From positions 1 to 48,686 of the forward strand of contig JAQXFQ010000030.1 of the NCBI GenBank assembly GCA_029005175.1: a stretch of 48,686 bases of DNA, given 5' to 3'. Positions 1-42,980 of the stretch are shown one piece after another. The DNA is from Bacillota bacterium. Its GTDB lineage: Bacteria > Bacillota > Clostridia > Oscillospirales > Acutalibacteraceae. Every line of letters starts with the position of its first letter. Position 1 is the stretch's first letter. Both the position numbers and the translations under genes were made by a program. The notes under the pieces were generated by a model. It searched no databases. It was not told where the DNA came from and saw only the letters and a program-made list of their open reading frames with translations.

Positions 1-635
1 GCATACTGAGCCGGTGGCTTAGACATATAAAAGTCTTTCCAAAACGCGAGATCCTTTTCATAGCTTGGGCTTTTTTCATAATTCCATGAATCCTGATAAG
101 CGGGGAGAATAGGCAGAAATGGTTCAGGCATTTCGGTGCCGTCCTTGAGAGACTTGTAAACCTTAGTTACGTCCTCGATGAACTTAATAATACCATAATC
201 GTCTGCAATCAGATGATAAAAACAAACCAGTACGCTGTATCTGCCGTTGGCTCTTTTTACAAGGAAAACCTTGTAGAGGTCGCAATCCTGATAACCGTGC
301 GGGAACGGCGTCCTTACGAGCTTGTTGATATACTTATACATCTTATCGTCATTTTTAAAGGAAAGGCAAACGCACTTTGTTTCAGATTTATCAACAAAAT
401 ACTGCATGGCGACCTTCTTTTTGCCCTCCTTAACGTCGTGGCGTCTCACGCGTGTGGAGGGAAATCTGTCGATAGAGAGGTTGATGGCTTTCTCCATAAT
501 TTCAGGATCAATGTTATCCTGGTCAAAATTAACCATTATGCAAAGATTGTTGTAAATCTTTCCGACAAAACCCTCTGCTTGAGTAAGCAGTCTGTGTGAC
601 GGTGTCAAAGGATAATACTTTGTTTCAGTTGACAT
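1..635 (-). CDS. Stand-alone NRPS-type condensation (C) domain protein, N-terminal 211 codons only; gene continues beyond window start
   Basis: Own translation of the minus strand from ATG 635..633: MSTETKYYPLTPSHRLLTQAEGFVGKIYNNLCIMVNFDQDNIDPEIMEKAINLSIDRFPSTRVRRHD...VCFYHLIADDYG...; open to position 1. RBS AAAGGTGA lies 7 nt upstream. By eye it is a clear paralog of the 661..2064 product. Absent from the ORF track because the window edge truncates it. Confidence 0.8.
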   Translation of the reverse strand, partial: MSTETKYYPLTPSHRLLTQAEGFVGKIYNNLCIMVNFDQDNIDPEIMEKAINLSIDRFPSTRVRRHDVKEGKKKVAMQYFVDKSETKCVCLSFKNDDKMYKYINKLVRTPFPHGYQDCDLYKVFLVKRANGRYSVLVCFYHLIADDYGIIKFIEDVTKVYKSLKDGTEMPEPFLPILPAYQDSWNYEKSPSYEKDLAFWKDFYMSKPPAQY

Positions 636-660
636 AATAAAATCACCTTTCTTAATTTTT

Positions 661-2064
661 TTACATATCCATAAGCTCGCCCAAAGTAAGCTCAGGGTTG
701 CTAGTTGCCTTGTCAAGGAACTTGAGGAGGAAGCTGTGGAATTCAGCAATATCCTCTTCATTGTGTATCTTTGTCATATACTCATAGTTGACATTCATAT
801 CGCCTGAATAGGTATCGTTAGGCATTACTGTAATGTATATCGGCAGCGGGCTTTTGCCTGAAGTGAAACGCTCGCAGCTGATTTTATAATTACCGTCAGT
901 TTCCATGAAGCGAGGCTGATATGTGAAAATAATAGCACTTGAGCCGCGAACCCAGCCCTTTTCAAACTTTTTGCCGTATTCCATTCTCTGCTCCAGACGT
1001 GCGCTGCAATCTTCTTCATACAGCTTGCTGTGCATATAAAACTTGAACTGACACTCTGAGGTGTATTTACAGGCCTCAATTACAGTCATGCTGTTTTTAG
1101 CGTCCATGTAAAATGGCATTCCGGAAGCAAAACATCCGCCAGTCTTTGCTACCTTTGGATTGCTTCTGTTGGCAAGCAGATCCACAATTAAAAATTCCTC
1201 AGTTTTTTCGGTCTTTTTTGAAAGCCAGGTTCTGATTGCAAGCATATACAGCATTTTTGCCGAAAATTTACCCTCTTTGGCAAGGGCGTCCGTGCGTTCC
1301 ACCAGCTCCTTGGGAATTTTATAATTTGTCTGCACAGCCTTGCAATTAAATATATACAGATAATTTCCGAATTTTTTCCCGGGAATATATGTCTGCTTGT
1401 TTTCAAAACCATTGAGTGCGGCATACTGCGGTAAAGCCGGAATATTATCCCAGTAATCGTTCCAGAATTCTATATCGGCTTGATGTCGTTTACTGGTTTC
1501 ATAATCCCATACAGTCTGATAAGCTGGAATAAGCGGTTTAAACGGCTTCGGCATCTCTGTGTTGTTTTTCATTGCATAATATATATTGCAAAAATCTTCC
1601 GAGAATTTAGCAAGTCCATAGGAATCGATAATCAGATGATACATGCACATAAGCACGCCGTATCTGCCGTTTGCTTTTTTTACCAGATAAACCTTGTAAA
1701 GGTCGCAGTCCTGATAGTTGTTTGGAAATTTGGTTGAAACCAGCTTTCTTACAAATTTATTCAGCTTTTTATCACTCTTGAAAGAAAGTCGAACGCACCT
1801 TGTTTCCGGTTCATCAACTAAATACTGTTTTACAACCTTTTTGCCATTTTCCTTTGTATCGTGCCGTCTGAGGCGTGTAGATGGGTATCTCAGAATGGTT
1901 TGATTTATGGCATTTTCCATTATATCAGGGTCGATGTCATCCTGATCAAAGTTAATCATAACACACAAGTTATTATAAATCTTGCCGGCAAGCCCCTCCG
2001 CCAAAATCAGGCTGCCGTGATCCTTCAATAACGGATAGTAGGTTATATTTTCATCTTTCTTCAT
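661..2064 (-). CDS. Stand-alone NRPS-type condensation (C) domain protein (~467 aa)
   Basis: Has a C3-like catalytic motif MCMYHLIIDSYG, in which the second His, Asp and Gly of HHxxxDG are kept. Has a C2-like ILRYPSTRLRRHD and a YYPL N-terminus as in C1. Start moved to the second Met (MKKDENITYYPL) because GAAGGGA sits ~10 nt upstream and this aligns with the paralog's N-terminus. Confidence 0.8.
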   Translation of the reverse strand: MKKDENITYYPLLKDHGSLILAEGLAGKIYNNLCVMINFDQDDIDPDIMENAINQTILRYPSTRLRRHDTKENGKKVVKQYLVDEPETRCVRLSFKSDKKLNKFVRKLVSTKFPNNYQDCDLYKVYLVKKANGRYGVLMCMYHLIIDSYGLAKFSEDFCNIYYAMKNNTEMPKPFKPLIPAYQTVWDYETSKRHQADIEFWNDYWDNIPALPQYAALNGFENKQTYIPGKKFGNYLYIFNCKAVQTNYKIPKELVERTDALAKEGKFSAKMLYMLAIRTWLSKKTEKTEEFLIVDLLANRSNPKVAKTGGCFASGMPFYMDAKNSMTVIEACKYTSECQFKFYMHSKLYEEDCSARLEQRMEYGKKFEKGWVRGSSAIIFTYQPRFMETDGNYKISCERFTSGKSPLPIYITVMPNDTYSGDMNVNYEYMTKIHNEEDIAEFHSFLLKFLDKATSNPELTLGELMDM

Positions 2065-2094
2065 TAATTTATACATCCCTTCGTATTTACAATC

Positions 2095-2123
2095 AATATA
2101 TCGTTATACCAGCCACATTGCAA
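2095..2123 (-). promoter_or_regulatory. Putative sigma-A promoter for the C-domain genes (TTGCAA-17 nt-TATATT on the minus strand)
   Basis: Hexamers read directly from the sequence: -35 at 2118..2123, -10 at 2095..2100, 17-nt spacer. Confidence 0.45.
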
Positions 2124-2130
2124 CGAAAAG

Positions 2131-2189
2131 CTGATATAAAATAATCCCCCTAAAATTTCACTGTTAAGCTTTATTTCAGGAGGATTATT
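2131..2189 (-). terminator. Terminator-like hairpin after the ABC permease
   Basis: Arms 2140..2156 and 2173..2189 pair at about 15 of 17 positions. The tail is only a weak T-rich run (TTTATATC) on the minus strand. Confidence 0.4.
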
Positions 2190-2196
2190 GTAATGG

Positions 2197-5100
2197 TTAC
2201 TCTACAGATTTCAGAGATTCAACCATTGGTATATTAACCAAGCTTCGATACATGAAAATCATTACCGCAATCGAGAATGCACAGGTAAGAAGTATAGCGT
2301 TCAAGAAGCTGAACGGCTCAATAACGTAGCCGAACATAACATTCTTTTGCTCTATCATCTTAATAATAAATCTGTGCAGTCCCACACCGGCACCAAGTCC
2401 GAGTACAGCACCCATCAGCGTGAGAATAAGATTTTCGCTGTAAACGTAAATTGCGACTTCCTTATTCTTAAATCCAAGAACCTTAATAGTGGCAATTTCT
2501 CTCAAACGCTCCGAAACATTGATATTTGTCAGATTGTACAGCACAACAAATGCGAGCAATGCAGCACAAATTATAATGAGCATAACGATTTGGTTAAGGC
2601 TTGTAAACTGTTCATCAAATGTCTCAGCAACATTATTGAGAGCCATTACAGAGCTTGCAGCGGGAGAGTCGCTTATCTGAGTTACGAGCTCTTCATACTG
2701 CTTATCTGTAGCATCGTCTTTCACATTGACAAGAATCGTGTTTTGATCAACAGTATACCAGAAAGCGTCTTTGTAAGCGTCCTGAGTCATATATGCGTAA
2801 TGCTGCACATAGTTTTCTGTAATTCCTATAACCTCAAGCTTTTTGGTCATAGAACTGCTTGTAACATCAATTGAATCGCCAACGGTGACGTCCAATCTGT
2901 CGGCCAGTTTCTCGGTAATAATGATGCCCTTATCACTAAGCTCAAGAGGCGCGCCGGAAACTCTGTTGCGCAGTACGATATAGTCAGTCAAATGTTCTGC
3001 GTCTTCGGTTACATAGAGGGTAACAGATTCATTGTTGCCGTTATTGCCATTCTTATTTTCAGCAGTAACGCTGATGCTTCCTATGTGTGTATAAGAATCA
3101 ACTATATCGCTGTTTGAAACAAGAGAATCAAGGGCAATGCGCTGATCCAAAATATCCTCTTCATCAGAAGAATTGTTTGCAAGTGATGCAAGCATACTGT
3201 TGTCTGCGGCGGTATAAGAATAAGCTACATCAAACTTAAATATTTCACCGTATTGATTTTTTACAACAGAACTGATAGTATCATTCATGCCCAAACCGCA
3301 AAGAAGCAATGCCGTACATCCCATAATGCCTATGATAGTCATGCAAAGACGCTTCTTATATCTGAAGATATTGCGGACAGTAACCTTCTGAGAGAAGTTG
3401 AGGTGATTCCAGAAGAAATGAATGCGTTCCAGGAAGATAGCCTTACCGATTTTCGGTGCTTTGGGACGCATAAGTGTGGCAGGCACACTGTTAAGCTCAC
3501 TGCGGCACACAAAATAAGCCGTAAGAACCATGGCAAGAGTAGTGATGCAGAAAGAGGAGATAATGATAGAGGGATGAAATGACTGCATTATATCCTTAGG
3601 CTGGCTGTACATTGCCGACCACGCGTTGTACACAGCATATGGGAATAGCTTTATTCCTATAGCAGCGCCTATAACAGCACCTGTAATGCTGGCAATGAAT
3701 ACGTAAAGAATATATTTTGCAGAAATAGCAGCATTGCTGTAACCGAGAGCCTTGTAAGTACCGATTACGCCGCGCTGTTCGTCTATCATACGTGTCATTG
3801 TGGTCATGCATACCAATATAGCAACCAAAATGAAAAATACGGGCAGGAACTGTGCCATTGCTTTCATGCTGCTTGCAGTGTTGTCGTAGCTTGCATAGCC
3901 GTAGTTGAAGTTTCTGTCAAACACATACCAGGAAGCCTCTTCGATCTGGTCGATCTGTCTCTGGGCAGATGCGAGCTGATCTTCCGCGCTTTCGAGCTGA
4001 GCCTTACCTGAGAGTTTCTGCTTTTCAAAGGTTTTCTTTCCGGCGTAATACTGTTTCCAGCCGGCTTCCAACTGAGCTTTACCCTTGCTAAAGGCAGCCT
4101 GTGCATTTGCCTTCTGACGCTTAAGCTCTGCTTTGCCGTTGGCTAAATCCTTTTTACCCTGGGCAAGTTCCGCTTTTGCAGAATTTAGAGTTTTTCTCGC
4201 ACTGCTCAGCTGAGCTTCATAGACATCCATGACCTGAGCTACGCCGTCATTGAGTTCATTGAGTCCCTTGCTTGTGTCCTGAAGCAGCTTGTTGTATTCG
4301 TCATACATTGCAAGCATTTCAAGATATGTCAATCGATCCTCGGGAGAAAGGTCAGGATCCTTAAGTTTCTCTTCTATTTCCTTGCGATTTTCGCTGCTTT
4401 TTTCCGCAAGCTCTTTTGTAGTTTTTGCAAGACGGTCAAGTCTTTCAATAGAATCCTTGTTTTCGGCAAGTGCATCGTTGTACTCTTTTTGAGCCTCTTC
4501 CAATTGCTTTTCGCCTTCGGCAATAGCCTTTTCACTTTCGGCAATCTGCTTTTCTGCAGTTTTTATATCGGCTTCGGCGTCAGCGATTTTTGCCTTATAA
4601 ATTTCCTGCTGGCTTTCAAGCTCGGCGTCGCCGTTTACAAGCTTTTTATATGATTCCTCAAGCTTTTTTTCGGCGGCAGATATTTGTTTGTCGTAATTTG
4701 CCTTTTCCTTGTCATACTTAGCCTGAGCCTCGTCGAGCTGAGACTGAGCATAGTCACGAAGCTGATCGGCGCGCTTCATCGCACGGTCAACGGCAACATT
4801 TTCAACCTTTGACTTAACCTTGTCGATGATTTGCTGATAGGTATCATCGTCAAAGCAGTCCATTTCCTTTGCGCCCTTGACAGTTACAACAGCTTCCAGA
4901 TAGACATTTTCATTTTCAAGATACATGTTCTTAAAATCAAATGCAGCTTCGGGAATGTAAGCAAAAAGGCTTATGCTCTTGTTGCTGATAGTCTGGGATG
5001 TACCCATCTCATAGGTCAGATAGAGCGGAGTTGTGATAAGACCAACCACAGTGTACTCATCATAATATAAAGTACCGTCAGTAAGAGCGGTGGACGTGCC

Positions 5101-5601
5101 GGAAGAAAACTTGAGCACATCGCCGATTTTAACATTATATCCGCCCGCCATAGTATCGGGGAGCTGCACTACGATTTCATTCGGCTTTTCAGGAAGTCTG
5201 CCTTCCTTTACGTTCAGCCTGTTTATATAGCTGTCCAGATTTCCTGCGTCGCTATCGCTTACATAATTATTAGGGAGGCTGTGCAGACGGAATACCAGTT
5301 CGTTTTCATTAACCACGGTAACTACATCGGTAAGGAAGCCCGGCTGAACATTTTCAACGCCGTCAACTTCTTTTATAGCCTGAATATCTTCTTCTGTCAA
5401 TCCGAGAGGCGAGATAATCTGCAAATCCTGAACATTGTATTCATCAAAATAATTGTCTATGGTGTAGGCCATGTCAGGCGCAGCTGATTTAAGTCCGGCA
5501 AAAAAGGAAACACCGATAGCAACGATACAAAGGATGGATACGAAGCGGTTCTTAGATTTCCATATCTCTCTGATCAGATCTTTAAAGAGGGATTTTGTCA
5601 T
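2197..5601 (-). CDS. ABC transporter permease, MacB/FtsX family with two FtsX modules and a long extracytoplasmic coiled-coil insert (1134 aa)
   Basis: N-terminal TM (FVSILCIVAIGVSFFAGL), then a MacB-like extracytoplasmic domain. A ~280-aa heptad-like region rich in Lys, Glu, Ala and Gln follows (QLDEAQAKYDKEKANYDKQI...KAELAQGKKDLANGKAELKRQK). Two FtsX-type TM bundles are present (TRMIDEQRGVIGTYKALGY; ERLREIATIKVLGF). The stop is 6 nt from the ATPase gene. Confidence 0.85.
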   Translation of the reverse strand: MTKSLFKDLIREIWKSKNRFVSILCIVAIGVSFFAGLKSAAPDMAYTIDNYFDEYNVQDLQIISPLGLTEEDIQAIKEVDGVENVQPGFLTDVVTVVNENELVFRLHSLPNNYVSDSDAGNLDSYINRLNVKEGRLPEKPNEIVVQLPDTMAGGYNVKIGDVLKFSSGTSTALTDGTLYYDEYTVVGLITTPLYLTYEMGTSQTISNKSISLFAYIPEAAFDFKNMYLENENVYLEAVVTVKGAKEMDCFDDDTYQQIIDKVKSKVENVAVDRAMKRADQLRDYAQSQLDEAQAKYDKEKANYDKQISAAEKKLEESYKKLVNGDAELESQQEIYKAKIADAEADIKTAEKQIAESEKAIAEGEKQLEEAQKEYNDALAENKDSIERLDRLAKTTKELAEKSSENRKEIEEKLKDPDLSPEDRLTYLEMLAMYDEYNKLLQDTSKGLNELNDGVAQVMDVYEAQLSSARKTLNSAKAELAQGKKDLANGKAELKRQKANAQAAFSKGKAQLEAGWKQYYAGKKTFEKQKLSGKAQLESAEDQLASAQRQIDQIEEASWYVFDRNFNYGYASYDNTASSMKAMAQFLPVFFILVAILVCMTTMTRMIDEQRGVIGTYKALGYSNAAISAKYILYVFIASITGAVIGAAIGIKLFPYAVYNAWSAMYSQPKDIMQSFHPSIIISSFCITTLAMVLTAYFVCRSELNSVPATLMRPKAPKIGKAIFLERIHFFWNHLNFSQKVTVRNIFRYKKRLCMTIIGIMGCTALLLCGLGMNDTISSVVKNQYGEIFKFDVAYSYTAADNSMLASLANNSSDEEDILDQRIALDSLVSNSDIVDSYTHIGSISVTAENKNGNNGNNESVTLYVTEDAEHLTDYIVLRNRVSGAPLELSDKGIIITEKLADRLDVTVGDSIDVTSSSMTKKLEVIGITENYVQHYAYMTQDAYKDAFWYTVDQNTILVNVKDDATDKQYEELVTQISDSPAASSVMALNNVAETFDEQFTSLNQIVMLIIICAALLAFVVLYNLTNINVSERLREIATIKVLGFKNKEVAIYVYSENLILTLMGAVLGLGAGVGLHRFIIKMIEQKNVMFGYVIEPFSFLNAILLTCAFSIAVMIFMYRSLVNIPMVESLKSVE

Positions 5602-5607
5602 AATTAA

Positions 5608-6546
5608 TTACCACTCCACATCTTCAATGGATTTAGGATTATCATTGAGCGAAATAGACTCAATGCGTCCGTTTTTGACTTTGATAACCTTGTCGCCTAT
5701 GTCTGTAAGTGCAAGGTTGTGAGTAATGATGATAACTGTCATACCCGTGCTTCTCGCAGTATCCTGGAGCAACTTAAGTATAGCCTTACCGGTGTTGTAG
5801 TCAAGAGCGCCTGTCGGTTCGTCGCAAAGCAGCAGCTTTGGGTTCTTGGCCAGTGCACGGGCGATAGCCACACGCTGCTGCTCACCGCCCGAAAGCTGAG
5901 AGGGGAAATTGTTTGCACGCTCATTCAGACCAACGGCGTCAATGGTTTCCATGATGTCCAGAGGATTTTTGCTGACCTGAGTTGCAAGTTCGACATTTTC
6001 CTTTGCGGTAAGATTCTGAACCAGATTGTAGAACTGGAAAACAAATCCAACGTCGTATCTGCGGTATAAAATAAGGTGTTTATTGTCGTACTTGCTGACC
6101 TCATTGCCGTCAACCCAAATCTCGCCGCTTGTCAATGTATCCATACCGCCGAGGATGTTAAGTATAGTACTTTTACCGGCGCCGCTGGCACCCGCAATGA
6201 TAACAAACTCGCCCTGGTTTATAGAAAAATTAACACCGTCAAGCGCATGGATTTCAGTTTCACCCATTTTGTAGGTTTTGCGCACGTCGTTAAATTCTAT
6301 GAAAGCGTGACCCGACCTTGAAACATCGGAAATGCTGACTTCATCAGAAGGAGCAGCATTATCGAAATTTTTGATAGCCTCAGACATATCAACTTCATTC
6401 GTATCGTAATTTCCATCTAAATCGTCTGAAACATCTTCAGCAATCTCCGCATTGGCTTCATCCGAATTTGTCTCTTCGACTTCATCGAATGCAAATTCGT
6501 CTTCTTCCAAAACGGATTGTTTTTTTGATTTTAATTTCTCCAACAT
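5608..6546 (-). CDS. ABC transporter ATP-binding protein (MacB-type) with ~85-aa acidic N-terminal extension
   Basis: Walker [10 protein letters not shown], signature [15 protein letters not shown], Walker [13 protein letters not shown]. The first ~85 residues are Asp/Glu-rich with no ABC motifs. RBS AGGAGGAA is upstream. Confidence 0.9.
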
Positions 6547-6742
6547 TAAATCGTTCCTCCTGATAAACGAGTAATTAAATACAGTTATTTTGGAAATGCT
6601 TTTACGTCAACCTGACAAAACAACATATTAAGTTTGATGCGTATGCTGTTTTACGGATTGATGTATAAACAGTCACCATTCAACCGACAAAATTCATAAA
6701 AAATCTGACGACTGAATGGCAACAGAACTTATTGTAAATAGG

Positions 6743-6967
6743 TTAGATAAGGGTTGTGATGTACTTGGCAAGATCTTCGATTGTGCGGATGTTGACAAGT
6801 TCATCAGTATCGATTTCGATGCCGAATTCATCCTCAAGCTCGCCGATCATTGCAACGATGTCGTAGGAATTCATCTTAAGATCCTTGAGGAACTCCGTTT
6901 CGGGAGTAATCTCACTCTCATCAGCGTCAACATACTCAAGCAGCTTTGTCTTAATTTTCTCAAACAT
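6743..6967 (-). CDS. Acyl carrier protein (74 aa)
   Basis: Carrier-protein fold signature LKDLKMNSYDIVAMIGELEDEFGIEI, with Ser in the position of the DSL phosphopantetheine site. Start taken at MFEKIK, with RBS GAAAGGAGAA 7 nt upstream. The ATG overlaps the ligase stop (ATGTTTGA). Confidence 0.8.
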   Translation of the reverse strand: MFEKIKTKLLEYVDADESEITPETEFLKDLKMNSYDIVAMIGELEDEFGIEIDTDELVNIRTIEDLAKYITTLI

Positions 6968-8669
6968 TTGCGGTTCTCCTTTCAATCATAAACCTTTTGA
7001 TTTTTTTGGTTGTTGTTTTTTCAAATTCAGAATCATAAATAACCACATCAGTAATTCTCTTAAATGTAGCGATCTTTGAATTGAATTTGGCTATATCATT
7101 CATCAGATATGCATATCTGTCCTCAACGCCATTGGCTGTGAGGAATTCATCGTCGAGATAACACGCGGCGTAGATGCCTGTATTTGCCTCGTCTGCATAA
7201 ACGACTACTTCCTTAATATATGCAATCTGAGCAACCAACATTTCTTCAATTTCCTCCGGGAATACATTTTTTCCGTTGGGCAGTATAATCAGATTTTTTA
7301 CTCTGCCGGAAATATAGAGGAAGTTATCTTTGTCTAAATAACCTATGTCGCCTGTTTTAAACCAGCCGTCTTCTGTAAACACAGCTTTTGTGCTCGCCTC
7401 GTCCTTGTAGTATCCAAGCATAACATTGTCGCCCTTTACAAGGATTTCACCGTATCCGTTTCTATCTGGGTTATCAATGCGAACGGTAGTTCCGGGAACG
7501 ACCATACCCACAGAGCCTACCTTTTTAAATCTGGTGCAGTTTGCGGCTACCAGCGGTGAACATTCAGTGATACCGTAGCCCTCTACTATATCAATTCCGT
7601 AAGAATCAAGAGTTTTGATAATCTCCTTGGAAAGCGGAGCACCGCCGCAGACTATTTGATTAATGTTGCCGCCGAATTTGTCGAGGATAGGTTTAAAGAA
7701 AAGTCTGCGCTTATCAATACCGATTTTTCTGATAAGGTTGCTGAATTTAGCACCGTAGCGAAGATGATTTGAAAGACCTGCTTTTTCAGATTCCACATTA
7801 ATTTTTCTTACCATTGTTTCAAGGAAAATCGGAACCATGAGTGAAAATGTCGGCTTGAATCTCTCGAAGTTTTGCATAACGTGCTTGAGGTCATCATTAA
7901 AGCATACTGTGGTACCGAGATAGAGCGCACAGAGAAGGTGAGTGTTTTTTTCGTAAGTGTGGTTAATAGGAAGTACGGAAAGAGTATTTTCACCCGGGCG
8001 AATCAATTTCATTGAGCTGTAAACAGTAGCGCACACGTTTTTATGTGAAAGCATAACGCCCTTGTTTGCGCCTGTTGTACCCGATGTAAACACGATTTCG
8101 CTCATGATTTCAGGATTAATTTCCGCGTCAATAAACGATCTGTCGCCGTTGTTGACAAGCTCTTGACCTTTTGCTATCACATCGGTAAAAGACAGGCAGC
8201 CTTCAGCTTCATAATCAAAGCCTTCCTTAGCTCTCATAACAATGCAGTATTTAACATTTGGGCATTGCTCCAATGCCTGCTTTATCTTTTTATACATTTT
8301 AAACGAGCAGAAAATAGCTGCACATTCGCTGATGTTTATCTGCTTTGCAAGTGTATCAGGCTGGAGTTCCTTATCAAGAGGCACAGCAACACCGGTACCG
8401 TTTACAATACCGAAATATGCTTCCATCCACTCTATTGAAGTTTCTCCTATAACGGCAATCTGCTTGCCCTTAAGTCCCATGGCAATCAGTTGAGTGCCGA
8501 TAGCGTTGGATCTTTCAAGCATCTGGTTAAAGGTTACAGTTTCAGTCTCTGTTTTGCTGACGATCTGCTCAAACAAAACTGAATCCCCGTAAAGCTTCGC
8601 GCCCCGCTCCACCAGTTCCTTTAAATCTTTCATGCGATCGGCTTTAAAAAGTTTCTTTTTGTAATTCAC
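6960..8669 (-). CDS. AMP-dependent acyl ligase (long-chain fatty-acid-CoA/ACP ligase-like, ANL superfamily)
   Basis: Core motifs FTSGTTGANKGVMLSH, GYGITE, TGDIGYLD and GRVKNLIILPNGKNVFP. GTG start with RBS GGAAGGAGA 8 nt upstream. Confidence 0.9.
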   Translation of the reverse strand: MNYKKKLFKADRMKDLKELVERGAKLYGDSVLFEQIVSKTETETVTFNQMLERSNAIGTQLIAMGLKGKQIAVIGETSIEWMEAYFGIVNGTGVAVPLDKELQPDTLAKQINISECAAIFCSFKMYKKIKQALEQCPNVKYCIVMRAKEGFDYEAEGCLSFTDVIAKGQELVNNGDRSFIDAEINPEIMSEIVFTSGTTGANKGVMLSHKNVCATVYSSMKLIRPGENTLSVLPINHTYEKNTHLLCALYLGTTVCFNDDLKHVMQNFERFKPTFSLMVPIFLETMVRKINVESEKAGLSNHLRYGAKFSNLIRKIGIDKRRLFFKPILDKFGGNINQIVCGGAPLSKEIIKTLDSYGIDIVEGYGITECSPLVAANCTRFKKVGSVGMVVPGTTVRIDNPDRNGYGEILVKGDNVMLGYYKDEASTKAVFTEDGWFKTGDIGYLDKDNFLYISGRVKNLIILPNGKNVFPEEIEEMLVAQIAYIKEVVVYADEANTGIYAACYLDDEFLTANGVEDRYAYLMNDIAKFNSKIATFKRITDVVIYDSEFEKTTTKKIKRFMIERRTANV

Positions 8670-9044
8670 TTAATAAATCTCCTTCCAATGCGTCTCCCAT
8701 AAAAAGCAAACGCTTTGCACATGTATAAAAGCTTCATAATAGATTCACCACCAAATTATACAATAAAATCGGCTTATTGTCACTTGATAGATATTACAAA
8801 ATAATAAAAAAATTTTCACGGAAAACTCTACAAAATTAACCAAATATGTAAATGTTGTTCGTTAGGAAAATATAGCATATATATTAACGAACTGAGAATA
8901 AAAAGGAAACAAAAGATAAGGACAGGGGCAATAGCTTTAGGTGTTTTGCGTTTTCATATTTTTTTAGCTAAGGTTGGTCATAATAAGAGCTTTTGCTAAT
9001 AAATATTATAATATAAAACAAGATACAGACGAGGAGTGTAAATT

Positions 9045-13653: not shown

Positions 13654-15213
13654 TTGGACAGCATAAAACGTGTGTTTTTGATAGTTCTTGACAGTCTGGG
13701 AGCGGGAGAATTGCCCGACGCCTCGGACTACGGTGACAAAGGCTCAAATACCCTGCGCAGTATTTCGCAGTCGCCTCAGATTTTCATTCCAAACCTACGC
13801 AAGCTCGGCATAGGCAATATTGACGGGCTGGGGTTTCTAGGCACTAATGAAAATCAACAGGCGGCGGTTTGCAAGCTTGGTGAGTTGTCAAAGGGGAAGG
13901 ATTCTACAATAGGTCACTGGGAAATTTCGGGGATTATTTCCGACAGTCCTCTGCCGACATTTCCGAATGGCTTCCCGCAGGAAATTATTGACAAGTTCAG
14001 CGAGTTGACGGGCAGGGGAGTGCTCTGCAACAAGCCATATTCAGGCACGCAGGTTATCGCCGACTACGGTGAGCAGCACGAGCGCACGGGAGATTTAATT
14101 GTCTACACCTCAGCCGACAGCGTGTTTCAGATAGCGGCGCATGAAAATATCGTTCCGATTGAAAAGCTGTATGAATACTGCGAAATCGCCCGCCAAATCC
14201 TTGTCGGAAAGTATGGAGTGGGGCGAGTTATTGCGCGCCCGTTCGTTGGTTCGGCAGGCAATTACACCCGAACCTCTCGTCGTCACGATTTTTCAATAGA
14301 GCCGCCGCAGAAAACAATTTTGGACTCATTGAAAGCTGCCGGGCGGGATGTTATCTCAGTTGGCAAAATCAAGGATTTGTTTGCTGAGCGAGGCCTGACT
14401 GAGATGCTTGCTACAAAGAACAATGCTGACGGAATGGAAAAAACAGCAGAAGCCGCCGACAGGGATTTCAACGGCTTGTGCTTTGTGAATCTGGTGGATT
14501 TCGACATGGTTTACGGTCATCGCAACAATGTTGACGGATACGCCGCAGCCCTGTCTGAGTTTGACAAGTGGCTGGGTGAATTTTTGCCGAAGCTGCGGGA
14601 TGACGATATTTTGATGATTACAGCCGACCACGGCTGTGACCCGGGAGATATAAGCACCGACCACACCAGAGAATATATTCCGCTGATGATTTACGGCAAG
14701 CTTGTTTCACCGATAAATTTAGGCATTCGCCAAACTTTCTCGGACATTGCCGCGACTTTGGCGGAAATTTTCGGTGTAAATTACACCTGCGCGGGTGAGA
14801 GCATGCTTGGAGAACTTACCGACATGAAGCAGCATCTGTGTAATCAGGCAAAACGCGCTTTGCAAAAATCCTACTCGCCATATTCAGGCTACCGTGTGGG
14901 CGCAGCACTTCTTACCGGGAGCGGTAAAATTTATACAGGCTGCAATATCGAAAATTCCGCGTTTTCGCCCACTATATGTGCGGAACGCACTGCGTTTGCC
15001 AAGGCAGTCAGCGAGGGTGAAAAAAGTTTCAGAATGATAGCCGTGGCGGGCGGCAAAGGCGGCATAGTAACGGATATTTTCCCGCCGTGCGGTGTGTGTC
15101 GGCAGGTAATGCGTGAATTTTGCACTCAGAATTTTATTATTTTGCTGGCAAAAGACTGCGGTTACGAGGAATACACCCTGTCTCAGCTTCTCCCGAACAG
15201 TTTTTCAATTTAA
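13654..15213 (+). CDS. deoB: Fusion protein: phosphopentomutase (aa 1-390) + cytidine deaminase (aa 391-519)
   Basis: N-terminal part has VFLIVLDSLGAGELPDA..GSNTL and ITADHGCDP. C-terminal part has YSPYSGYRVGAALL, CAERTA and PCGVCRQVMREF (zinc ligands of Cdd). It is one uninterrupted frame. Confidence 0.85.
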   Translation: MDSIKRVFLIVLDSLGAGELPDASDYGDKGSNTLRSISQSPQIFIPNLRKLGIGNIDGLGFLGTNENQQAAVCKLGELSKGKDSTIGHWEISGIISDSPLPTFPNGFPQEIIDKFSELTGRGVLCNKPYSGTQVIADYGEQHERTGDLIVYTSADSVFQIAAHENIVPIEKLYEYCEIARQILVGKYGVGRVIARPFVGSAGNYTRTSRRHDFSIEPPQKTILDSLKAAGRDVISVGKIKDLFAERGLTEMLATKNNADGMEKTAEAADRDFNGLCFVNLVDFDMVYGHRNNVDGYAAALSEFDKWLGEFLPKLRDDDILMITADHGCDPGDISTDHTREYIPLMIYGKLVSPINLGIRQTFSDIAATLAEIFGVNYTCAGESMLGELTDMKQHLCNQAKRALQKSYSPYSGYRVGAALLTGSGKIYTGCNIENSAFSPTICAERTAFAKAVSEGEKSFRMIAVAGGKGGIVTDIFPPCGVCRQVMREFCTQNFIILLAKDCGYEEYTLSQLLPNSFSI

Positions 15214-15223
15214 CTTAACAGTA

Positions 15224-15270
15224 ATAAGCCGATTTATCGCTGAGTTTGTGATAAAATCGGCTTATTTGGT
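15224..15270 (+). terminator. Rho-independent terminator of the deo operon
   Basis: ATAAGCCGATTT (15224..15235) pairs with AAATCGGCTTAT (15254..15265) and is followed by a T-rich tail. Confidence 0.7.
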
Positions 15271-15337
15271 GCTTTGTAAAATATTATTATTGAACAAATG
15301 CGGCGGCTGTGGTAAAATAAACCGTGAGGTGACTGCG

Positions 15338-15961
15338 GTGGAAGAATATATTACGCTCGAAAAAGCGTCATCAGATGAATTTGTGGAAAGAAAATCCCGT
15401 TTCATAGGCTATGCCCGACCTGTAAAAAGTGAGGAAGAGGCACTCGATTTTATAGCGCAAATAAAATCAAAGCACTGGGACGCAACCCACAATGTTTACG
15501 CATATTGTCTGCGTGAAAACAACATTTGTCGATATTCAGACGACGGTGAGCCGTCCGGCACTGCCGGGATACCGGTGCTTAATGTACTGCAAAAAAACAG
15601 TCTCACCGACTGCGCGGTAGTAGTGACGCGTTATTTCGGCGGAATACTTCTGGGCGGCGGTGGATTAGTGCGCGCCTACACGCACGGAGCGTCAATCGGC
15701 GTCAACGCGGCGGGCATCATAACAATGCGTCTGTGCGCTATCTGCTCGCTAAGGTGCGACTATAACCAATACGGACGGATAAATTCTCTGATTCCGGAGT
15801 GCGGAGGTATTGTGACCAATGCTGAATTCGGCGCAGACGTGGATTTATCATTTTCCATGACACGCGAGGATTTTGATTCCTTTTTGCCAAAACTGGCCGA
15901 TGCTACCAACGGAAGCGTCAAGGCCGAAATTGTAGGGGAAGAATATATTCGTGTAATTTAG
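15338..15961 (+). CDS. yigZ: YigZ/IMPACT family protein (UPF0029)
   Basis: ERKSRFIGYARPV, KHWDATHNVYAY, DDGEPSGTAGIPVL, TRYFGGILLGGGGLVRAY. GTG start 6 nt after AGGTG. The long N-terminal extension in the ORF track (from 15113) would span the deo terminator. Confidence 0.85.
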   Translation: MEEYITLEKASSDEFVERKSRFIGYARPVKSEEEALDFIAQIKSKHWDATHNVYAYCLRENNICRYSDDGEPSGTAGIPVLNVLQKNSLTDCAVVVTRYFGGILLGGGGLVRAYTHGASIGVNAAGIITMRLCAICSLRCDYNQYGRINSLIPECGGIVTNAEFGADVDLSFSMTREDFDSFLPKLADATNGSVKAEIVGEEYIRVI

Positions 15962-30948: not shown

Positions 30949-32169
30949 ATGTCTGAAATTATAAAAAATTCATTCAGAAATCTTACGCGTAAAAAAGCGC
31001 GAACGCTGCTTTCTATAATTGCGATTGCCGTGGGTGTAACATCTGTAATTGTTATATGGGGTATAAGCAACGCCGGTACAGAGATGATATGCGATGAGTT
31101 TAAAAGCCTTGGACTGGATGGAATAAGTGTAGGAAAAAGTGTGAATAATATCAGTTCGGCAATAGGGGAGAGCGAATTTGAAGTAATTGCCGCCAATGCA
31201 AATGTAGAAAAAGCCACGCCTGTTATTTATTCATATTCGGCAATATCCAAAGTCGGAGATACAAACAATCCTACAAATTGTGTAATGTGGGGAGTCCCGG
31301 AAGATGCAGGCGATGCGGTGTCGCTTGAAATAGTCCACGGCAGAATGATAAATTCGGAAGATATGAAGGATAAATCTAATGTTTGTCTTATAGATGAAGC
31401 TACATCCAGCAATATTTTTGGCAAAGAAAATTCTGTGGGCGAAAATATTCAGATAATGTCCAACGGTAAACCTGTAGAATGTAAGATAATCGGAATAGTG
31501 AGAACCGGCAGCGGAATTTTGCAAAATATGCTTGGAAATTTCATTCCGACGTTTGTGTATACGCCATTGACCTTTGCCGAAAAAATTGAAAAACGCAGCG
31601 ATTACGACAGAATCACTGTGAAATTAAAGGATTCCGACACACAGGAGCTTGAGGCAATATGCTCAGATATAAATGATCAGCTTATCGGAGCGTTGGACGA
31701 AAACAGCAAGAGCAAAACATCTTACAGTGTAACAAATCTGGCTCATCACCGTGACTCGCTGATGAGCATTATGAATATTATAACTTTGGTACTCACGGCA
31801 ATCGGTGGAATTTCTCTTATGGTGGCCGGAATGGGAATTATGACCATAATGACAGTATCAGTTAATGAACGCACACACGAAATAGGAATACGCAAAGCAA
31901 TCGGCGCATCACGACTAAGAATTATGCTTGATTTCATAGTTGAGGCGATAATGCTTACAATGATTGGCTGCGTTGCAGGAATTGCGGCGAGCTGTGTAAT
32001 TGGTTGGATAAGCGAATTAGCTTTTGGCTTTAAAATGGCTATCAATCTAAATTCGATTTTTTTAATCTCGGTGTTTTCGATTTTTGTAGGAATACTCTTC
32101 GGGGCTTATCCGGCGTTTAAAGCGTCATGTATGAAACCGGTTGATGCACTGAGGGAAGGCGGAAATTAG
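30949..32169 (+). CDS. ABC transporter permease, MacB/FtsX family (single module, 406 aa), with no adjacent ATPase gene
   Basis: N-terminal TM (LLSIIAIAVGVTSVIVIW), a ~230-aa extracytoplasmic domain, then an FtsX bundle with ERTHEIGIRKAIGA. Confidence 0.85.
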   Translation: MSEIIKNSFRNLTRKKARTLLSIIAIAVGVTSVIVIWGISNAGTEMICDEFKSLGLDGISVGKSVNNISSAIGESEFEVIAANANVEKATPVIYSYSAISKVGDTNNPTNCVMWGVPEDAGDAVSLEIVHGRMINSEDMKDKSNVCLIDEATSSNIFGKENSVGENIQIMSNGKPVECKIIGIVRTGSGILQNMLGNFIPTFVYTPLTFAEKIEKRSDYDRITVKLKDSDTQELEAICSDINDQLIGALDENSKSKTSYSVTNLAHHRDSLMSIMNIITLVLTAIGGISLMVAGMGIMTIMTVSVNERTHEIGIRKAIGASRLRIMLDFIVEAIMLTMIGCVAGIAASCVIGWISELAFGFKMAINLNSIFLISVFSIFVGILFGAYPAFKASCMKPVDALREGGN

Positions 32170-32262: not shown

Positions 32263-33237
32263 ATGCGCATTGATTACATGAATGAATCACCGATGATATT
32301 CCGTGAATACTTCGGTTACATGGAAACTATTAAAGGCAAATCAGCGAAAACTGTTGAAGGTTATTTTTTTGATTTGCGTTCATTTTTTCGCTATATAAAG
32401 CTTTCCCGCGGTTTGGTGGACTCAGATTCTAAATTTGAAGAGATTTCAATTCTCGATGTTGACTTAAATTTGATTGAATCAGTTCATCTGACGGATGTTT
32501 TTGAATTTTTGAATTATGCCGCGTCAGTCCGCAGCAACAACAATAATACACGTTCACGAAAATGCTCGTCATTGAGGTCGTTTTATCATTATTTGTATTC
32601 TACCACAGGTCAGATTAAACACAATCCCGTTCAGGAACTCAGCAATCCTAAAATCCCAAAAAAACTTCCAAAGTATCTGGACTTAGAGCAAAGCATTGAA
32701 TTGCTTCATGCAGTTGACGGCAAATTTAAAGAACGCGATTATTGTATTCTAACGCTGTTTCTCAACTGCGGAATGCGGCTTTCTGAGCTGGTTGGAATAA
32801 ATCTAAGCGACATTCGGGCGGATAATTCTCTGCGGATTACAGGTAAAGGCAACAAGCAGCGCATTGTTTATCTTAATGAAGCATGTATAAATGCCATCAA
32901 CGCCTATAAACGCGTCAGACCGGTTGAAGGTGTAATTGATCGTGACGCACTTTTTATCAGTCAGCAGCTTAAAAGAATAAGTCCTAAAACAGTGCAATAT
33001 TTAGTTAAAAAATATCTCGGAAAAATCAATTTGAACGATGGTTATTCCACTCACAAGCTGCGTCATACCGCTGCTACATTGATGTATCAGCAAGGCGGCG
33101 TCGATACCCGTGTATTAAAGGATATATTAGGTCATGAAAATATGAACACCACTGAAATTTACACTCATCTGTCAAATGAGCAGATAAAAAAAGCTATAAA
33201 TTCAAACCCGCTTGCTAAGCTCGACATAAAAAAATAA
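32263..33237 (+). CDS. Tyrosine site-specific recombinase, XerC/XerD family
   Basis: N-terminal SAM-like domain (KTVEGYFFDLRSFFRYI). Catalytic residues lie in GMRLSEL, HKLRHTAAT and GHENMNTTEIYTH. Confidence 0.88.
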   Translation: MRIDYMNESPMIFREYFGYMETIKGKSAKTVEGYFFDLRSFFRYIKLSRGLVDSDSKFEEISILDVDLNLIESVHLTDVFEFLNYAASVRSNNNNTRSRKCSSLRSFYHYLYSTTGQIKHNPVQELSNPKIPKKLPKYLDLEQSIELLHAVDGKFKERDYCILTLFLNCGMRLSELVGINLSDIRADNSLRITGKGNKQRIVYLNEACINAINAYKRVRPVEGVIDRDALFISQQLKRISPKTVQYLVKKYLGKINLNDGYSTHKLRHTAATLMYQQGGVDTRVLKDILGHENMNTTEIYTHLSNEQIKKAINSNPLAKLDIKK

Positions 33238-33308: not shown

Positions 33309-35363
33309 TTATTCAGCATCTTCTGCAACAGCTTCATCATCAGCAGCCTCTGCGACCTCTGCAGCTTCTGCAGATTCAGCCTGAGCCTTGAGAACTTCCT
33401 TGATTGAAAGGCTTACATGCTTATTCTCAAAGTCAATGTTTGTGATAGCAGCTGTAACAACATCGCCAACCTTAACTACATCTGTCGGCTTCTCAACATG
33501 ATCAAGGCTGAGCTGGCTGATGTGGATAAGACCGTCAAGACCCGGCAGAATATTGACAAATGCGCCAAAGCTGGGTGTACCGACAACCTTAGCCTGAATA
33601 ACTGTTCCAATCGGATAACTATTCTTGAGGATTTCCCAAGGATTATCCTCAGCTTTCTTGTAACCGAGAGAAATTGTCTTCTTATCCTTTTTAACGTCCT
33701 TAACTCTTACTTCAACGACATCGCCGATAGAAAGAACATCCTTAGGATCCTTAATCTTATCCCATGAAAGCTCAGACTTGTGAATCATGCCGTCAACAGG
33801 ACCGAGGTTAACGAATGCGCCGTAGCTTGTAAGAGATTTAACAACGCCTGTGTAGGTCTTGCCGGGCTCGATTTCATCCCAGAATTCTTTCTCAGCAAGC
33901 TTCTTGATAGAGCCGATAGCTCTGCCTCTGCCGCCTGTGATGACTTCGATGATAACGAACTTTACCTTTTTCTTGAGAAGACTCTCGATAGGCTCTTTGG
34001 GTTTAAGCATGCACTGAGAAGCAGGAATAAATACAGAAACGCTGTCGCAAGCAACAAGTACGCCACCCTTGATAACCTGAGTTACAACGCCCTCAAATAC
34101 TACGGGTTCCTTTTCCTCTGTAACAGTTTCTTCTGTTGTCTCAGCGTCTTCATCATCGTCGCGTCTTCTTCTTCTGGTTGTAACCTTAGGAGAAGCAGCA
34201 ACCATCTTATCCCAAGTCTTTCTGGATTCAAGAATCTTCTTGGAGAGATAGATATAGCCGTCCTGGTCATTGACCTTGAGGATCATAAGCTCAAGCTCAT
34301 CGCCGACCTTTACAAGGTCTTCTGTTTTTGCGTTGGGATCGTCTGTGAGTTCTTTGAGTTCAACGATACCGGACTGTTTTCTTCCGACGTCTACGTAAAC
34401 CTCAGTTGGTGTAATGCCAACGACAGTACCTGTAACTACCTTTCCATTTGTATTTGAATTCTTGAAAGACTCCTCAAGCATAGCTTCAAAGCTTTCTGTG
34501 TTCTGAATTTCGCTCATTGTATATAGGACCTCCTTAATTATGTCAGCCGGTGTAGATGCACCAGCCGTAACACCGATGTTATGTGCCGCACGCACATCAT
34601 CAATAGGTAAATCCGCAGCGGTTTGTATTAAGATGCTTTTACACTTACTCTGACATATGTGGAAAAGCTTCGCGGTATTGGAACTGTTTGTCCCGCCTAT
34701 GATGATCATAAGATCGCATTTTGCCGACAGCTCTGCGGCTTCCTGCTGTCGACTTTGTGTCGCATTACATATTGTATCAAATAATGTTGCATTTGTACAG
34801 TCTTTTTTTAGAATTTTCAAACATTTTTTCCATAATTCCGTATTAAAAGTTGTCTGAGCAACAACAGATACAGAATTTTCTTTTAATTTGGGGTGGATTT
34901 TCAGCAAATCAGCCAAATCAGCATCATCTCTGAATGTGTACACCACACCGTTGCAGTGTCCTTTAATGCCGAGCACCTCCGGGTGTTCGGCGTCGCCTGC
35001 AATTAATATTATATCACCTTTTTCTGCCGCTTTGGTTACTATACTATGAATTTTTGCGACAAAAGGGCAGGTTGCATCCTGAATTTTTATGTTTTTTTTG
35101 TTAAGCTCGTTATAAACAGACAGCGGAACGCCATGTGAGCGAATTACCAGCACACTGTCCTGCGGAACTTCGTCCGGGGTTTCGGCAATCACCACTCCCC
35201 TGTCCGCCAGTTGATTAACGACCTGCGCGTTATGAATTATAGGTCCGAGAGTGCAGACCTTTTCCCCACTGTCCACCAAAGAATACACAAGCTCAATTGC
35301 CCTGTTTACTCCGAAGCAAAAGCCGGCCGATTTTGCAAGATAAATATTTTTCAAAATTATCAC
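33309..35363 (-). CDS. ispH: Bifunctional 4-hydroxy-3-methylbut-2-enyl diphosphate reductase (IspH) / ribosomal protein S1-domain protein
   Basis: N-terminal AKSAGFCFGVNRAIE and IspH Cys ligands. C-terminal part has four S1-type OB repeats (e.g. GTVVGITPTEVYVDVG, YTGVVKSLTSYGAFVNLG). Arg/Asp linker and acidic tail. Confidence 0.9.
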   Translation of the reverse strand: MIILKNIYLAKSAGFCFGVNRAIELVYSLVDSGEKVCTLGPIIHNAQVVNQLADRGVVIAETPDEVPQDSVLVIRSHGVPLSVYNELNKKNIKIQDATCPFVAKIHSIVTKAAEKGDIILIAGDAEHPEVLGIKGHCNGVVYTFRDDADLADLLKIHPKLKENSVSVVAQTTFNTELWKKCLKILKKDCTNATLFDTICNATQSRQQEAAELSAKCDLMIIIGGTNSSNTAKLFHICQSKCKSILIQTAADLPIDDVRAAHNIGVTAGASTPADIIKEVLYTMSEIQNTESFEAMLEESFKNSNTNGKVVTGTVVGITPTEVYVDVGRKQSGIVELKELTDDPNAKTEDLVKVGDELELMILKVNDQDGYIYLSKKILESRKTWDKMVAASPKVTTRRRRRDDDEDAETTEETVTEEKEPVVFEGVVTQVIKGGVLVACDSVSVFIPASQCMLKPKEPIESLLKKKVKFVIIEVITGGRGRAIGSIKKLAEKEFWDEIEPGKTYTGVVKSLTSYGAFVNLGPVDGMIHKSELSWDKIKDPKDVLSIGDVVEVRVKDVKKDKKTISLGYKKAEDNPWEILKNSYPIGTVIQAKVVGTPSFGAFVNILPGLDGLIHISQLSLDHVEKPTDVVKVGDVVTAAITNIDFENKHVSLSIKEVLKAQAESAEAAEVAEAADDEAVAEDAE

Positions 35364-41465: not shown

Positions 41466-41626
41466 AGACAGAATTTCATGCACATCGCCATACGGACACC
41501 AGATTGACTGCGGCGCACAAGACTAACCGCTTAATGCTGCTCGGTTCCCCGCCTGACATGGTTCACAGCGCCCTGTCGCACAGGATCCGGCATCCGCATG
41601 TCGATATGCACGAATATATTCTGTCT
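41466..41626 (-). ncRNA. ffs: Signal recognition particle RNA (4.5S/scRNA-type, ~161 nt)
   Basis: The minus strand reads ...CCAUGUCAGGCGGGGAACCGAGCAGCAUUAAGCGG..., the conserved domain IV motif with a GGAA tetraloop. The ends AGACAGAAU/AUUCUGUCU pair to close one long helix. Its position upstream of dnaX matches the Bacillus synteny. Confidence 0.85.
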
Positions 41627-41835: not shown

Positions 41836-42711
41836 TTACACCAAGTCAACAACCAATTCAGATTTTATTCCCGAAATGCTGAGTATATTTTCACTCTCGG
41901 GACTGTCACAGGGTTCGCAGCTCTCTCCGTCTTTCTGGCAGCATATACTGCATCCGCGTCCCTTATTGAGCAGTCGGAAATCAGAATCTTCGGGAATGTG
42001 TACAATAGACGCTGCGTTCCACTGGTTTAAATCCAGCCTTCCGTGAATCGCATCGACAGTAATGTCGTAATCCGTTTTAGCGGTGAATTCAAGGCTTCCT
42101 ATACAATTAACAACAGTTACATTTTCGGCGTCGCCGTCATATTCCAGACGTTCGAGTACCAGATTGACCAGATGCAGTTCCTTTGCGGATGCTTCAAGTT
42201 CGCAATGCTTAGTGTGATTTATAGGAAGTGTAATTGTAACAGAGAGCATGTCGGTTATCTCAAACTTGTTGAGTTCATTTTTCTTGTCACATTCAACATC
42301 CAGCTTGTTTCGGTTTTCGTTCAGCTTTATTTTGAAGAGTGAGCCAATATTTTCAAGTGTTTCTGAGGCGAGGTCAATGTGCAGTTTTTCATCTGTGCCC
42401 GAACATATTGTGATAGTTTTTGCGTTGCCCAAATGAATATCAAAATGCTTGCTGCAATCAATATCGTAAATTGTCTCGCTGTGGTAAGTGGGCTTTCTGA
42501 TTTTGTTTTGCGGCATTGCCTGTGAAACCAACTCATCTAAAGTTGTCTTGAATATCTCCGCAAGAATCATCATGTTCTCAATGTCGGGCAAACCCTTGCC
42601 TGTTTCCCATTTTGTGATTGCCTGTCGGGATACGCCGATCTTTTCAGCAAGCTGCTCCTGAGAAAGCCCCTCGTTTTTTCTTATTTCTTTCAATTTCTGA
42701 CCAAAATCCAT
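41836..42711 (-). CDS. XRE-family HTH regulator with ~220-aa C-terminal beta-rich domain (possibly DUF4097-like) and a Cys-rich tail
   Basis: N-terminus: FGQKLKEIRKNEGLSQEQLAEKIGVSRQAITKWETGKGLPDIENMMILAEIF. C-terminal tail: GRGCSICCQKDGESCEPC. Confidence 0.8.
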   Translation of the reverse strand: MDFGQKLKEIRKNEGLSQEQLAEKIGVSRQAITKWETGKGLPDIENMMILAEIFKTTLDELVSQAMPQNKIRKPTYHSETIYDIDCSKHFDIHLGNAKTITICSGTDEKLHIDLASETLENIGSLFKIKLNENRNKLDVECDKKNELNKFEITDMLSVTITLPINHTKHCELEASAKELHLVNLVLERLEYDGDAENVTVVNCIGSLEFTAKTDYDITVDAIHGRLDLNQWNAASIVHIPEDSDFRLLNKGRGCSICCQKDGESCEPCDSPESENILSISGIKSELVVDLV

Positions 42712-42980
42712 AATGTTTTAATCTCCAATCTTCTAAAAAATTTATTCCTTTTTGTAACGATTTTTTGTACGGTCACTCGACCGTCGGGATGTTATGATTA
42801 TAGCATCCGGCAAGAAAATCCACTACCAACATAGCATTACATTTACAGAAAATTTATGCTACTCAGCGTAGCATTGGGCGCCGGCTTTACAAAATAGAAA
42901 CTTATTCCTCATAATACAACAACCACACACACTTTTGCCATGCAAGCCAAGTGTGCGTGATTGTGAATATTTATATTAAA

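Follow-up and report, generated by a model that had tools for sequence, protein, structure and literature searches.

Six genes on the minus strand, between positions 1 and 8669 of contig JAQXFQ010000030.1 (assembly GCA_029005175.1), form a chromosomal cassette that rather likely belongs to the Clostridial fatty-acid-amide (FAA) pathway family, as a member coupled to a transporter. The contig comes from an Acutalibacteraceae (Oscillospirales) gut bacterium and was analysed over its whole length of 48,686 nucleotides, called the window below. The genes follow one another in the order ligase, acyl carrier protein (ACP), ABC ATPase, permease and two condensation (C) proteins, C1 and C2. The OaaA/OaaACP/OaaC system of Coprococcus eutactus (Chang et al. 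2021, cited in PMC13310621) is a Clostridial FAA pathway whose enzymes are like those of nonribosomal peptide synthetases (NRPS-like), and FAA C enzymes are strict for the amine and tolerant of the acyl chain (PMC13310621). An earlier note, made from the DNA sequence alone, had listed the same six genes and domains; Pfam returned each cassette domain above its gathering score in that very order, and the ligase and C motifs quoted there were all found in the translations. Each domain is carried by a separate protein, so that polypeptides of the canonical multimodular NRPS type, C-A-PCP(-TE) (where PCP stands for peptidyl carrier protein and TE for thioesterase), are not what the cassette encodes. 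In agreement with the earlier note, a scan of 36 open reading frames (ORFs) of the window found no domain of NRPS, polyketide synthase (PKS), ketosynthase or TE, and, apart from the permease, there is no window ORF longer than 815 amino acids. The label "non-NRPS" used in that note holds insofar as a multimodular NRPS is absent, but the nearest kin of the cassette are the FAA enzymes, themselves described as NRPS-like.

The condensation proteins place the cassette in this family. C1 and C2 are 60.6% identical to each other, no transmembrane (TM) segment was predicted in C1, and the catalytic motif reads YHLIIDS in C1 and YHLIADD in C2 (YHLIIDSYG and YHLIADDYG in the longer forms given earlier). 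When C1 was searched as a single sequence against the PDB, the best match was 12KH, over the full length and with E = 4.8e-14; this entry holds OaaC, which in Coprococcus eutactus is the free-standing condensation enzyme of the FAA pathway (PMC13310621). The profile of the window C clade gave 49 PDB matches at E<=1, with 12KH again matched over its full length (E = 3.2e-53), TycB next (2.6e-13), starter-type C domains at about 1e-6 to 1e-10, and VibH at 3e-6. The AlphaFold2 model of C1 (mean pLDDT 83.5) adopts the two-lobed C-domain fold, with a TM-score of ~0.75 to the C domains of LgrA and CDA, and, together with the Pfam matches, it bears out the earlier assignment of these proteins to the Condensation family. 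A Foldseek search with the model returned generic C domains; the structure library was older than the release of 12KH, which is why OaaC received no rank in it.

A profile search of the protein library returned 700 proteins (representatives of clusters at 50% identity) at E<=1e-30; the best 150 of the 700 are mostly stand-alone proteins of 445-475 amino acids, the others being multidomain NRPSs aligned at their N-terminal or internal C domains. A neighbour-joining tree of 120 sequences separates 105 free-standing C proteins from the N-terminal and internal C domains of NRPSs with a bootstrap of 97; among the 105 are OaaC, the C genes of two related cassettes (loci L009 and L010) and the window clade. 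The window C clade itself is recovered with a bootstrap of 100 when the C protein of locus L006 is included and of 90 without it. The catalytic His is present in 104 of the 105 free-standing proteins and the Asp in all of them; the seventh motif position is Ala or Ser in 79 and Gly in 6. The NRPS-embedded C domains of the same alignment mostly carry HHxxxDG or a near variant. The free-standing motif, XHxxxD(S/A), agrees with the FAA signature, which names D/H as the first residue of the motif (PMC13310621). C1 and C2 have Tyr there, not D/H, and across the family this position is variable (S, H, N, C, Y, D).

The ORF of C1 has 471 codons from position 2076; the ATG at 2064, giving 467 amino acids, is probably the true start, as in the nearest protein, the 99%-identical P0001 from an Acutalibacteraceae metagenome-assembled genome (MAG). 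The left end of the cassette could be followed on L014 (GCA_051881035.1), a contig 98% identical in DNA that shows the sequence beyond window position 1. There, C2 is complete with 464 amino acids, and the next gene is a convergent Metallophos gene; the cassette therefore ends with C2. The earlier description of two proteins of about 470 amino acids therefore fits C1 as it stands, but C2 is cut by the window edge after 211 residues; the expectation that the locus continues to the left of position 1 was correct. At C2 residue 146, the seventh motif position, the window has Asp and L014 has Ser (YHLIADS); Asp was found at this position in 0 of the 105 family representatives, and the substitution may be particular to this strain and may alter activity. 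A separate observation concerns L006 (1263-2678, 2-976), a short contig whose C protein, 48% identical to C1, is the nearest outgroup of the window clade; it is preceded by another ABC ATPase (28% identical to that of the cassette) and not by the permease. Scanned with the C alignment as profile, the genome contigs yielded a single locus, L004, which is a C-terminal fragment in an Acutalibacteraceae MAG, and no match came from the first metagenome scan made with this alignment.

The ligase and the ACP point in the same direction. The ligase motifs TSGTTGANKG, GYGITE and TGDIGYLD were all found in the translation, and the best NCBIfam match is a subfamily of long-chain-fatty-acid-CoA ligases. 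The ligase is 45-48% identical to those of the L009 and L010 cassettes and 34-36% identical, over nearly the full length, to the OaaA-type ligases found beside OaaC-type C genes. An insertion of 28 amino acids before the FGGN motif is common to the cassette ligases only; it resembles the long-chain acyl-CoA synthetases of the ACSL/COG1022 type. The ligase is presumed to be an acyl-ACP loader of the long-chain fatty-acid type. The best NCBIfam and PDB matches of the ACP, whose serine lies within LKMNSYD, are carriers of the fatty acid synthase type, and its identity to OaaACP-type carriers is 33-36% over nearly the full length. As noted earlier, the ATG of the ACP gene overlaps the 3' end of the ligase gene, by 8 nt; the two are translationally coupled. 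The earlier note had allowed that this pair could be a generic module for activating exogenous fatty acids, and the identity of the cassette ligases and their common insertion mark it instead as specific to the cassette. In L001 (1012-5347), the whole module of promoter, ligase, ACP and hairpin is tandemly duplicated, with ligases 84% and 71% identical to that of the window, which hints at two different acyl donors for the two C enzymes.

Judged from these sequences, the FAA pathway is the closest known system. Both have a discrete ANL ligase, a separate ACP, a free-standing C protein of ~460 amino acids in the same clade as OaaC, and the XHxxxD(S/A) motif with conserved His and Asp; TE and acceptor carrier are absent from both. 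The differences lie in the layout and in the partners. The window has the order A-T-...-C-C, whereas the OaaC-type loci L011-L013 are C-ACP-ligase (C-T-A) triplets without a pump. Within the window cassette stand an ABC ATPase and a double-FtsX permease of 1134 amino acids, which are found neither in OaaC-type clusters nor in the ebf/ecf clusters of Enterocloster, composed of PPTase (phosphopantetheinyl transferase), SCP-like protein, hydrolase, C, T and A (PMC10871352). Conversely, the SCP-like lipid-transfer protein, the hydrolase and the PPTase are missing from the window cassette. There are two C paralogues in the window and 1-3 in its relatives, and the window ligase, with its 28-residue ACSL-like insertion, is ~55 amino acids longer. 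The host belongs to the Acutalibacteraceae, whereas 95% of the known FAA clusters are found in Clostridium cluster XIVa. VibH (1L5A) and the starter C domains of SrfA-A and CDA share with C1 and C2 the C-domain fold and work with an acyl donor or with an amine acceptor that is soluble, and the group that scores next best consists of N-terminal, starter-like NRPS domains; they are, however, much more distant and belong to, or work with, multimodular NRPSs and PCP carriers.

The hydropathy profile of the permease has 8 TM segments in the pattern 1+3+1+3. The first ectodomain (~residues 39-580, ~540 amino acids) contains a coiled-coil insert of ~300 amino acids, and the second spans ~771-1003 (~230 amino acids). 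The arrangement typical of MacB, a four-TM FtsX module with MacB_PCD between TM1 and TM2, was found twice in the chain, and on this sequence evidence the permease is a fused MacB-like dimer; a sequence search of the PDB found no solved homologue of it. The best NCBIfam matches of the ATPase are DevA, LolD, FtsE and MacB, all under the equivalog cut-offs. With MacB, LolCDE and DevBCA the transporter thus has in common the FtsX four-TM and MacB_PCD modules and an ATPase of LolD/DevA/MacB type, and these systems give a precedent for lipid or glycolipid handling encoded beside biosynthetic genes; DevBCA serves heterocyst glycolipids. It differs from them in the fusion of two FtsX modules into one 8-TM chain, in the ~300-residue coiled coil of the first ectodomain and in its Gram-positive host. 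No MacA/DevB-type adaptor or outer-membrane partner was seen among the cassette genes or the scanned window ORFs, as is to be expected in a Gram-positive host. The ATPase also has a highly acidic N-terminal extension of ~80 amino acids (residues 1-80), kept in L001, absent in L009, L010, L016 and L017, and probably disordered.

The pump is inherited together with the biosynthetic genes. L001-L003 repeat the six-gene order, and their C proteins share 58-76% identity with C1. More distant cassettes have the order ligase-ACP-ABC-permease-C-PPTase (L009), ligase-ACP-PPTase-ABC-permease-C-C-C (L010) and ligase-ACP-PPTase-ABC-permease-C (L018), so that one, two or three C genes occur per cassette; the co-occurrence that the earlier note had proposed to look for is thus present. 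The permeases of these three cassettes are 40-47% identical to that of the window, and a comparison of the surroundings of L009 and L010 with those of the window showed no relationship. The called genes of L009 and L010 lie a few tens of bases apart, except for gaps of ~100-140 nt among the three C genes of L010, and L018 is similarly compact at the level of ORF annotation; the genes of all three are packed like a single operon. Clostridia carry the permease family as such very often: a single metagenome scan gave 573 confirmed matches, and 78 of the 80 metagenome loci fetched, as well as L016 and L017, contain the plain pair of ABC ATPase and permease. When 87 permeases were placed in a tree, the seven linked to cassettes all fell into one clade with a bootstrap of 100, and the pump appears, from this tree and the gene orders, to have been captured once and then passed on jointly with the biosynthetic genes. 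L007/L008 (9001-12315) also has a permease, 54% identical to that of the window, without ATPase, C gene or ACP beside it; it is oriented divergently to genes of the types AMP-binding, DUF3419, PPDK_N/PEP-utilizer and APH, which form a block.

The earlier note had warned that the linkage might be coincidental and that the cassette probably forms three transcription units. Taken to its end, this gives an explanation in which the ABC/FtsX pair, a housekeeping transporter without relation to the rest, lies by chance between an acyl-ACP module and C genes, and all three are transcribed independently. The spacers speak for it to some degree. The spacer between ACP and ATPase measures 196 nt, as noted before, and its 199-nt fold reaches -52.8 kcal/mol (z -5.15); the hairpin after the ACP is kept in L002, L003 and L001, and after the first ACP copy of L001 too, where both arms differ and a hairpin-compatible inverted repeat persists. 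The spacer between permease and C1 measures ~120 nt, with a 124-nt fold of -35.5 kcal/mol (z -4.55), and the hairpin in it has hardly changed in L014, L002, L003 and L001, whereas its flanks vary; it is a candidate partial terminator or mRNA-stability element. The site TTGCAA-17-TATATT described before C1 was located along with this hairpin. Its -35 part is, however, deleted in L002/L003, and support for a conserved promoter at this place is weak; of the three-unit proposal, the conserved hairpins and the spacers of the window clade stand, and the promoter before C1 is not supported. The top-scoring site of the promoter scan was GTGACA-17-TATAAT, and in L001 an identical sequence stands before the second copy of the ligase; no Rfam family matched in the cassette spacers. 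Even with most members of the permease family unlinked to C genes, the linkage of the pump is not coincidental, because the cassette permeases are monophyletic and the interleaved order recurs in four lineages, with differing flanks where these were compared (L009 and L010) and with tightly packed or overlapping genes in L009, L010 and L018. We consider chance neighbourhood very improbable, and suggest that the hairpins may act within one regulon as partial terminators or as stabilisers and so set the ratios of expression.

Two other explanations accept the cassette as a unit and differ in its product or purpose. According to one, which follows the mycobacterial parallel drawn in the earlier note, the C enzymes would O- or N-acylate a precursor of the membrane or cell wall, such as a sugar, a glycerolipid head group, or a teichoic-acid or polysaccharide intermediate, and the transporter would flip or insert the lipid into the envelope instead of setting free a signal that diffuses. 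The overall logic of the PapA/FadD/MmpL systems is indeed the same: ANL activation, a carrier-bound acyl group, a free-standing acyltransferase of the C superfamily and an exporter. MacB/FtsX systems handle membrane lipids (LolCDE) and glycolipids (DevBCA), DevA and LolD being among the best NCBIfam matches of the ATPase, and the giant coiled-coil ectodomain suggests an extracytoplasmic partner or a reach across the wall. Envelope genes lie nearby, namely Amidase_3 in the window and, in L001, LytR_cpsA_psr, sortase and Wzz on the downstream side, but such neighbours are not kept in L009, L010 or L003. The identity of the acceptor leaves room for a precursor of this kind; the nearest characterised relatives, however, all take soluble amines. 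A PapA5 structure is present in the PDB, yet none of the 49 matches of the C-clade profile at E<=1 is a PapA structure, and with OaaC at E = 3.2e-53 PapA was ruled out as the closest family, no relationship beyond the superfamily being detected. The exporter, moreover, is an ABC transporter of type VII and not of the RND/MmpL kind, the ligase is ACSL-like and not a fatty-acyl-AMP ligase of the FadD type, and no PKS or RND gene was found in the window or the related cassettes. An envelope-lipid role is on balance unlikely. The other explanation is detoxification: toxic exogenous fatty acids would be conjugated and pumped out, host signalling being incidental. Its chemistry is identical to that of the FAA proposal, the ligase is of the type that activates exogenous long-chain fatty acids, and the pump family is widespread in Clostridia as a two-gene stand-alone unit, as is typical of resistance and efflux. 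Multiple amine-selective C paralogues would be unnecessary for such a task, and no regulator or fatty-acid-responsive element was identified, Rfam being blank in the region, so that we regard detoxification as quite unlikely.

With the domain identities, the family placement, the gene order and the co-inheritance of the pump established here, a scheme for the FAA-type pathway may be proposed. The ACSL-like ligase would adenylate a long-chain, probably exogenous, fatty acid and attach it by a thioester to the holo-ACP with which it is translationally coupled; the PPTase is presumably encoded elsewhere in the genome. C1 and C2, as predicted cytoplasmic enzymes, would each pass the acyl group of acyl-ACP on to a nucleophile that diffuses freely, an amine or amino acid being most likely, by means of the His and Asp of XHxxxD(S/A), and the paralogues most likely differ in acceptor specificity. 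The MacB-type transporter would then pull the amphiphilic product from the membrane and expel it, as proposed on the basis of type VII ABC transporter biology. The variable number of C genes would mean several head groups made from one acyl-ACP pool, because FAA C enzymes are amine-selective and acyl-tolerant, and acceptor diversification is most simply the meaning of the 1-3 copies. A bolder version, which we put forward tentatively, is an undescribed FAA subclass in which a clade of giant coiled-coil double-FtsX proteins was captured as a lipid exporter or extractor, and in which tandem C paralogues make a family of N-acyl products or form heterodimers; the heterodimer idea is plausible because OaaC is an autoinhibited homodimer opened by acyl-ACP.

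Several points weigh against the FAA proposal or limit it. C1 is only 22% identical to OaaC, and the deeper branches within the free-standing C family have bootstraps of 11-47; for both reasons, N- and O-acylation cannot be told apart from homology. The loading of the ACP, the fatty-acid and amine substrates, the number of transfers, one or two, the amide product and the division of labour between C1 and C2 we infer by analogy, and so, too, the role of the pump in export. The permease of L007 is nested in the cassette clade and yet stands alone, and a tblastn search found no PPTase in the window. In the window clade, the conserved hairpins and spacers of 120-196 nt divide the cassette into three blocks, so that co-expression is not guaranteed. 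Finally, no FAA cluster containing a transporter or FtsX protein was found in the literature covered, which was incomplete and did not include the founding FAA study; we conclude with moderate confidence that the kind of pathway is known and that its pump-containing version has apparently not yet been described. The coordinates of the features are listed in Table 1.

Table 1 Features of the cassette and its spacers, with window coordinates, strand and the evidence for each.
Feature	Position	Strand	Evidence
C2, second free-standing condensation protein, N-terminal 211 amino acids (runs off left edge)	3..635	-	Pfam Condensation E 4e-16
C1, free-standing condensation protein, FAA type	661..2076	-	Pfam Condensation E 7.7e-30
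Promoter-like TTGCAA-17-TATATT, permease-C1 spacer	2095..2123	-	consensus scan 9/12
Hairpin, 17-bp stem, then U-rich tract, directly after permease stop	2140..2189	-	spacer fold, conservation
Fused double MacB/FtsX (type VII ABC) permease, 1134 amino acids	2197..5601	-	Pfam FtsX x2, MacB_PCD x2
ABC ATPase, MacB/LolD/DevA type, 312 amino acids	5608..6546	-	Pfam ABC_tran E 3.3e-35
Hairpin directly after ACP stop, ACP-ATPase spacer	6672..6723	-	spacer fold, conservation
ACP, 74 amino acids	6743..6967	-	Pfam PP-binding E 2e-13
ANL ligase, 569 amino acids	6960..8669	-	Pfam AMP-binding E 1.2e-64 plus AMP-binding_C_3
Promoter-like GTGACA-17-TATAAT, ~85 nt upstream of ligase start	8755..8783	-	consensus scan 11/12

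The surroundings of the cassette are ordinary chromosome, with genes for RadA, thymidine kinase, DeoC, PNP, SpoIIR, PEPCK, PcrA and DnaX and a signal recognition particle (SRP) RNA. The latter, a bacterial small SRP RNA (41494-41592, minus strand; Rfam RF00169, 64.6 bits), lies directly downstream of dnaX. A second permease with MacB_PCD and FtsX, a single-module protein of 406 amino acids (30949-32169, plus strand), adjoins a tyrosine recombinase (Phage_integrase; 32263-33237, plus strand). An ORF of 519 amino acids (13654-15213, plus strand) joins phosphopentomutase (Metalloenzyme) and cytidine deaminase, which are two adjacent genes in L017, and overlaps the next ORF (15113-15961) by ~100 nt; a protein of 684 amino acids (33309-35363, minus strand) has IspH (LytB) fused to S1 RNA-binding repeats. 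At 41836-44444 (minus strand), an XRE-type helix-turn-helix protein of 291 amino acids stands beside a membrane-type GHKL/HATPase_c_5 (AgrC-like) kinase of 487 amino acids, and the two may form a quorum-type sensor.

FAA lipids of gut Clostridia act on human G-protein-coupled receptors and have been linked to inflammatory bowel disease. The FAA literature covered here does not treat their way out of the cell, and a built-in, co-inherited pump offers an export route that can be tested. The cassette extends the FAA-type pathway from cluster XIVa into Oscillospirales, and the variation in the number of C genes provides natural material for studies of acceptor specificity and of C-C or C-ACP interactions. 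The linkage also supplies a concrete substrate hypothesis for type VII ABC transporters of a large orphan family; if true, this would be the first functional assignment for a transporter family that is very widespread in Clostridia.

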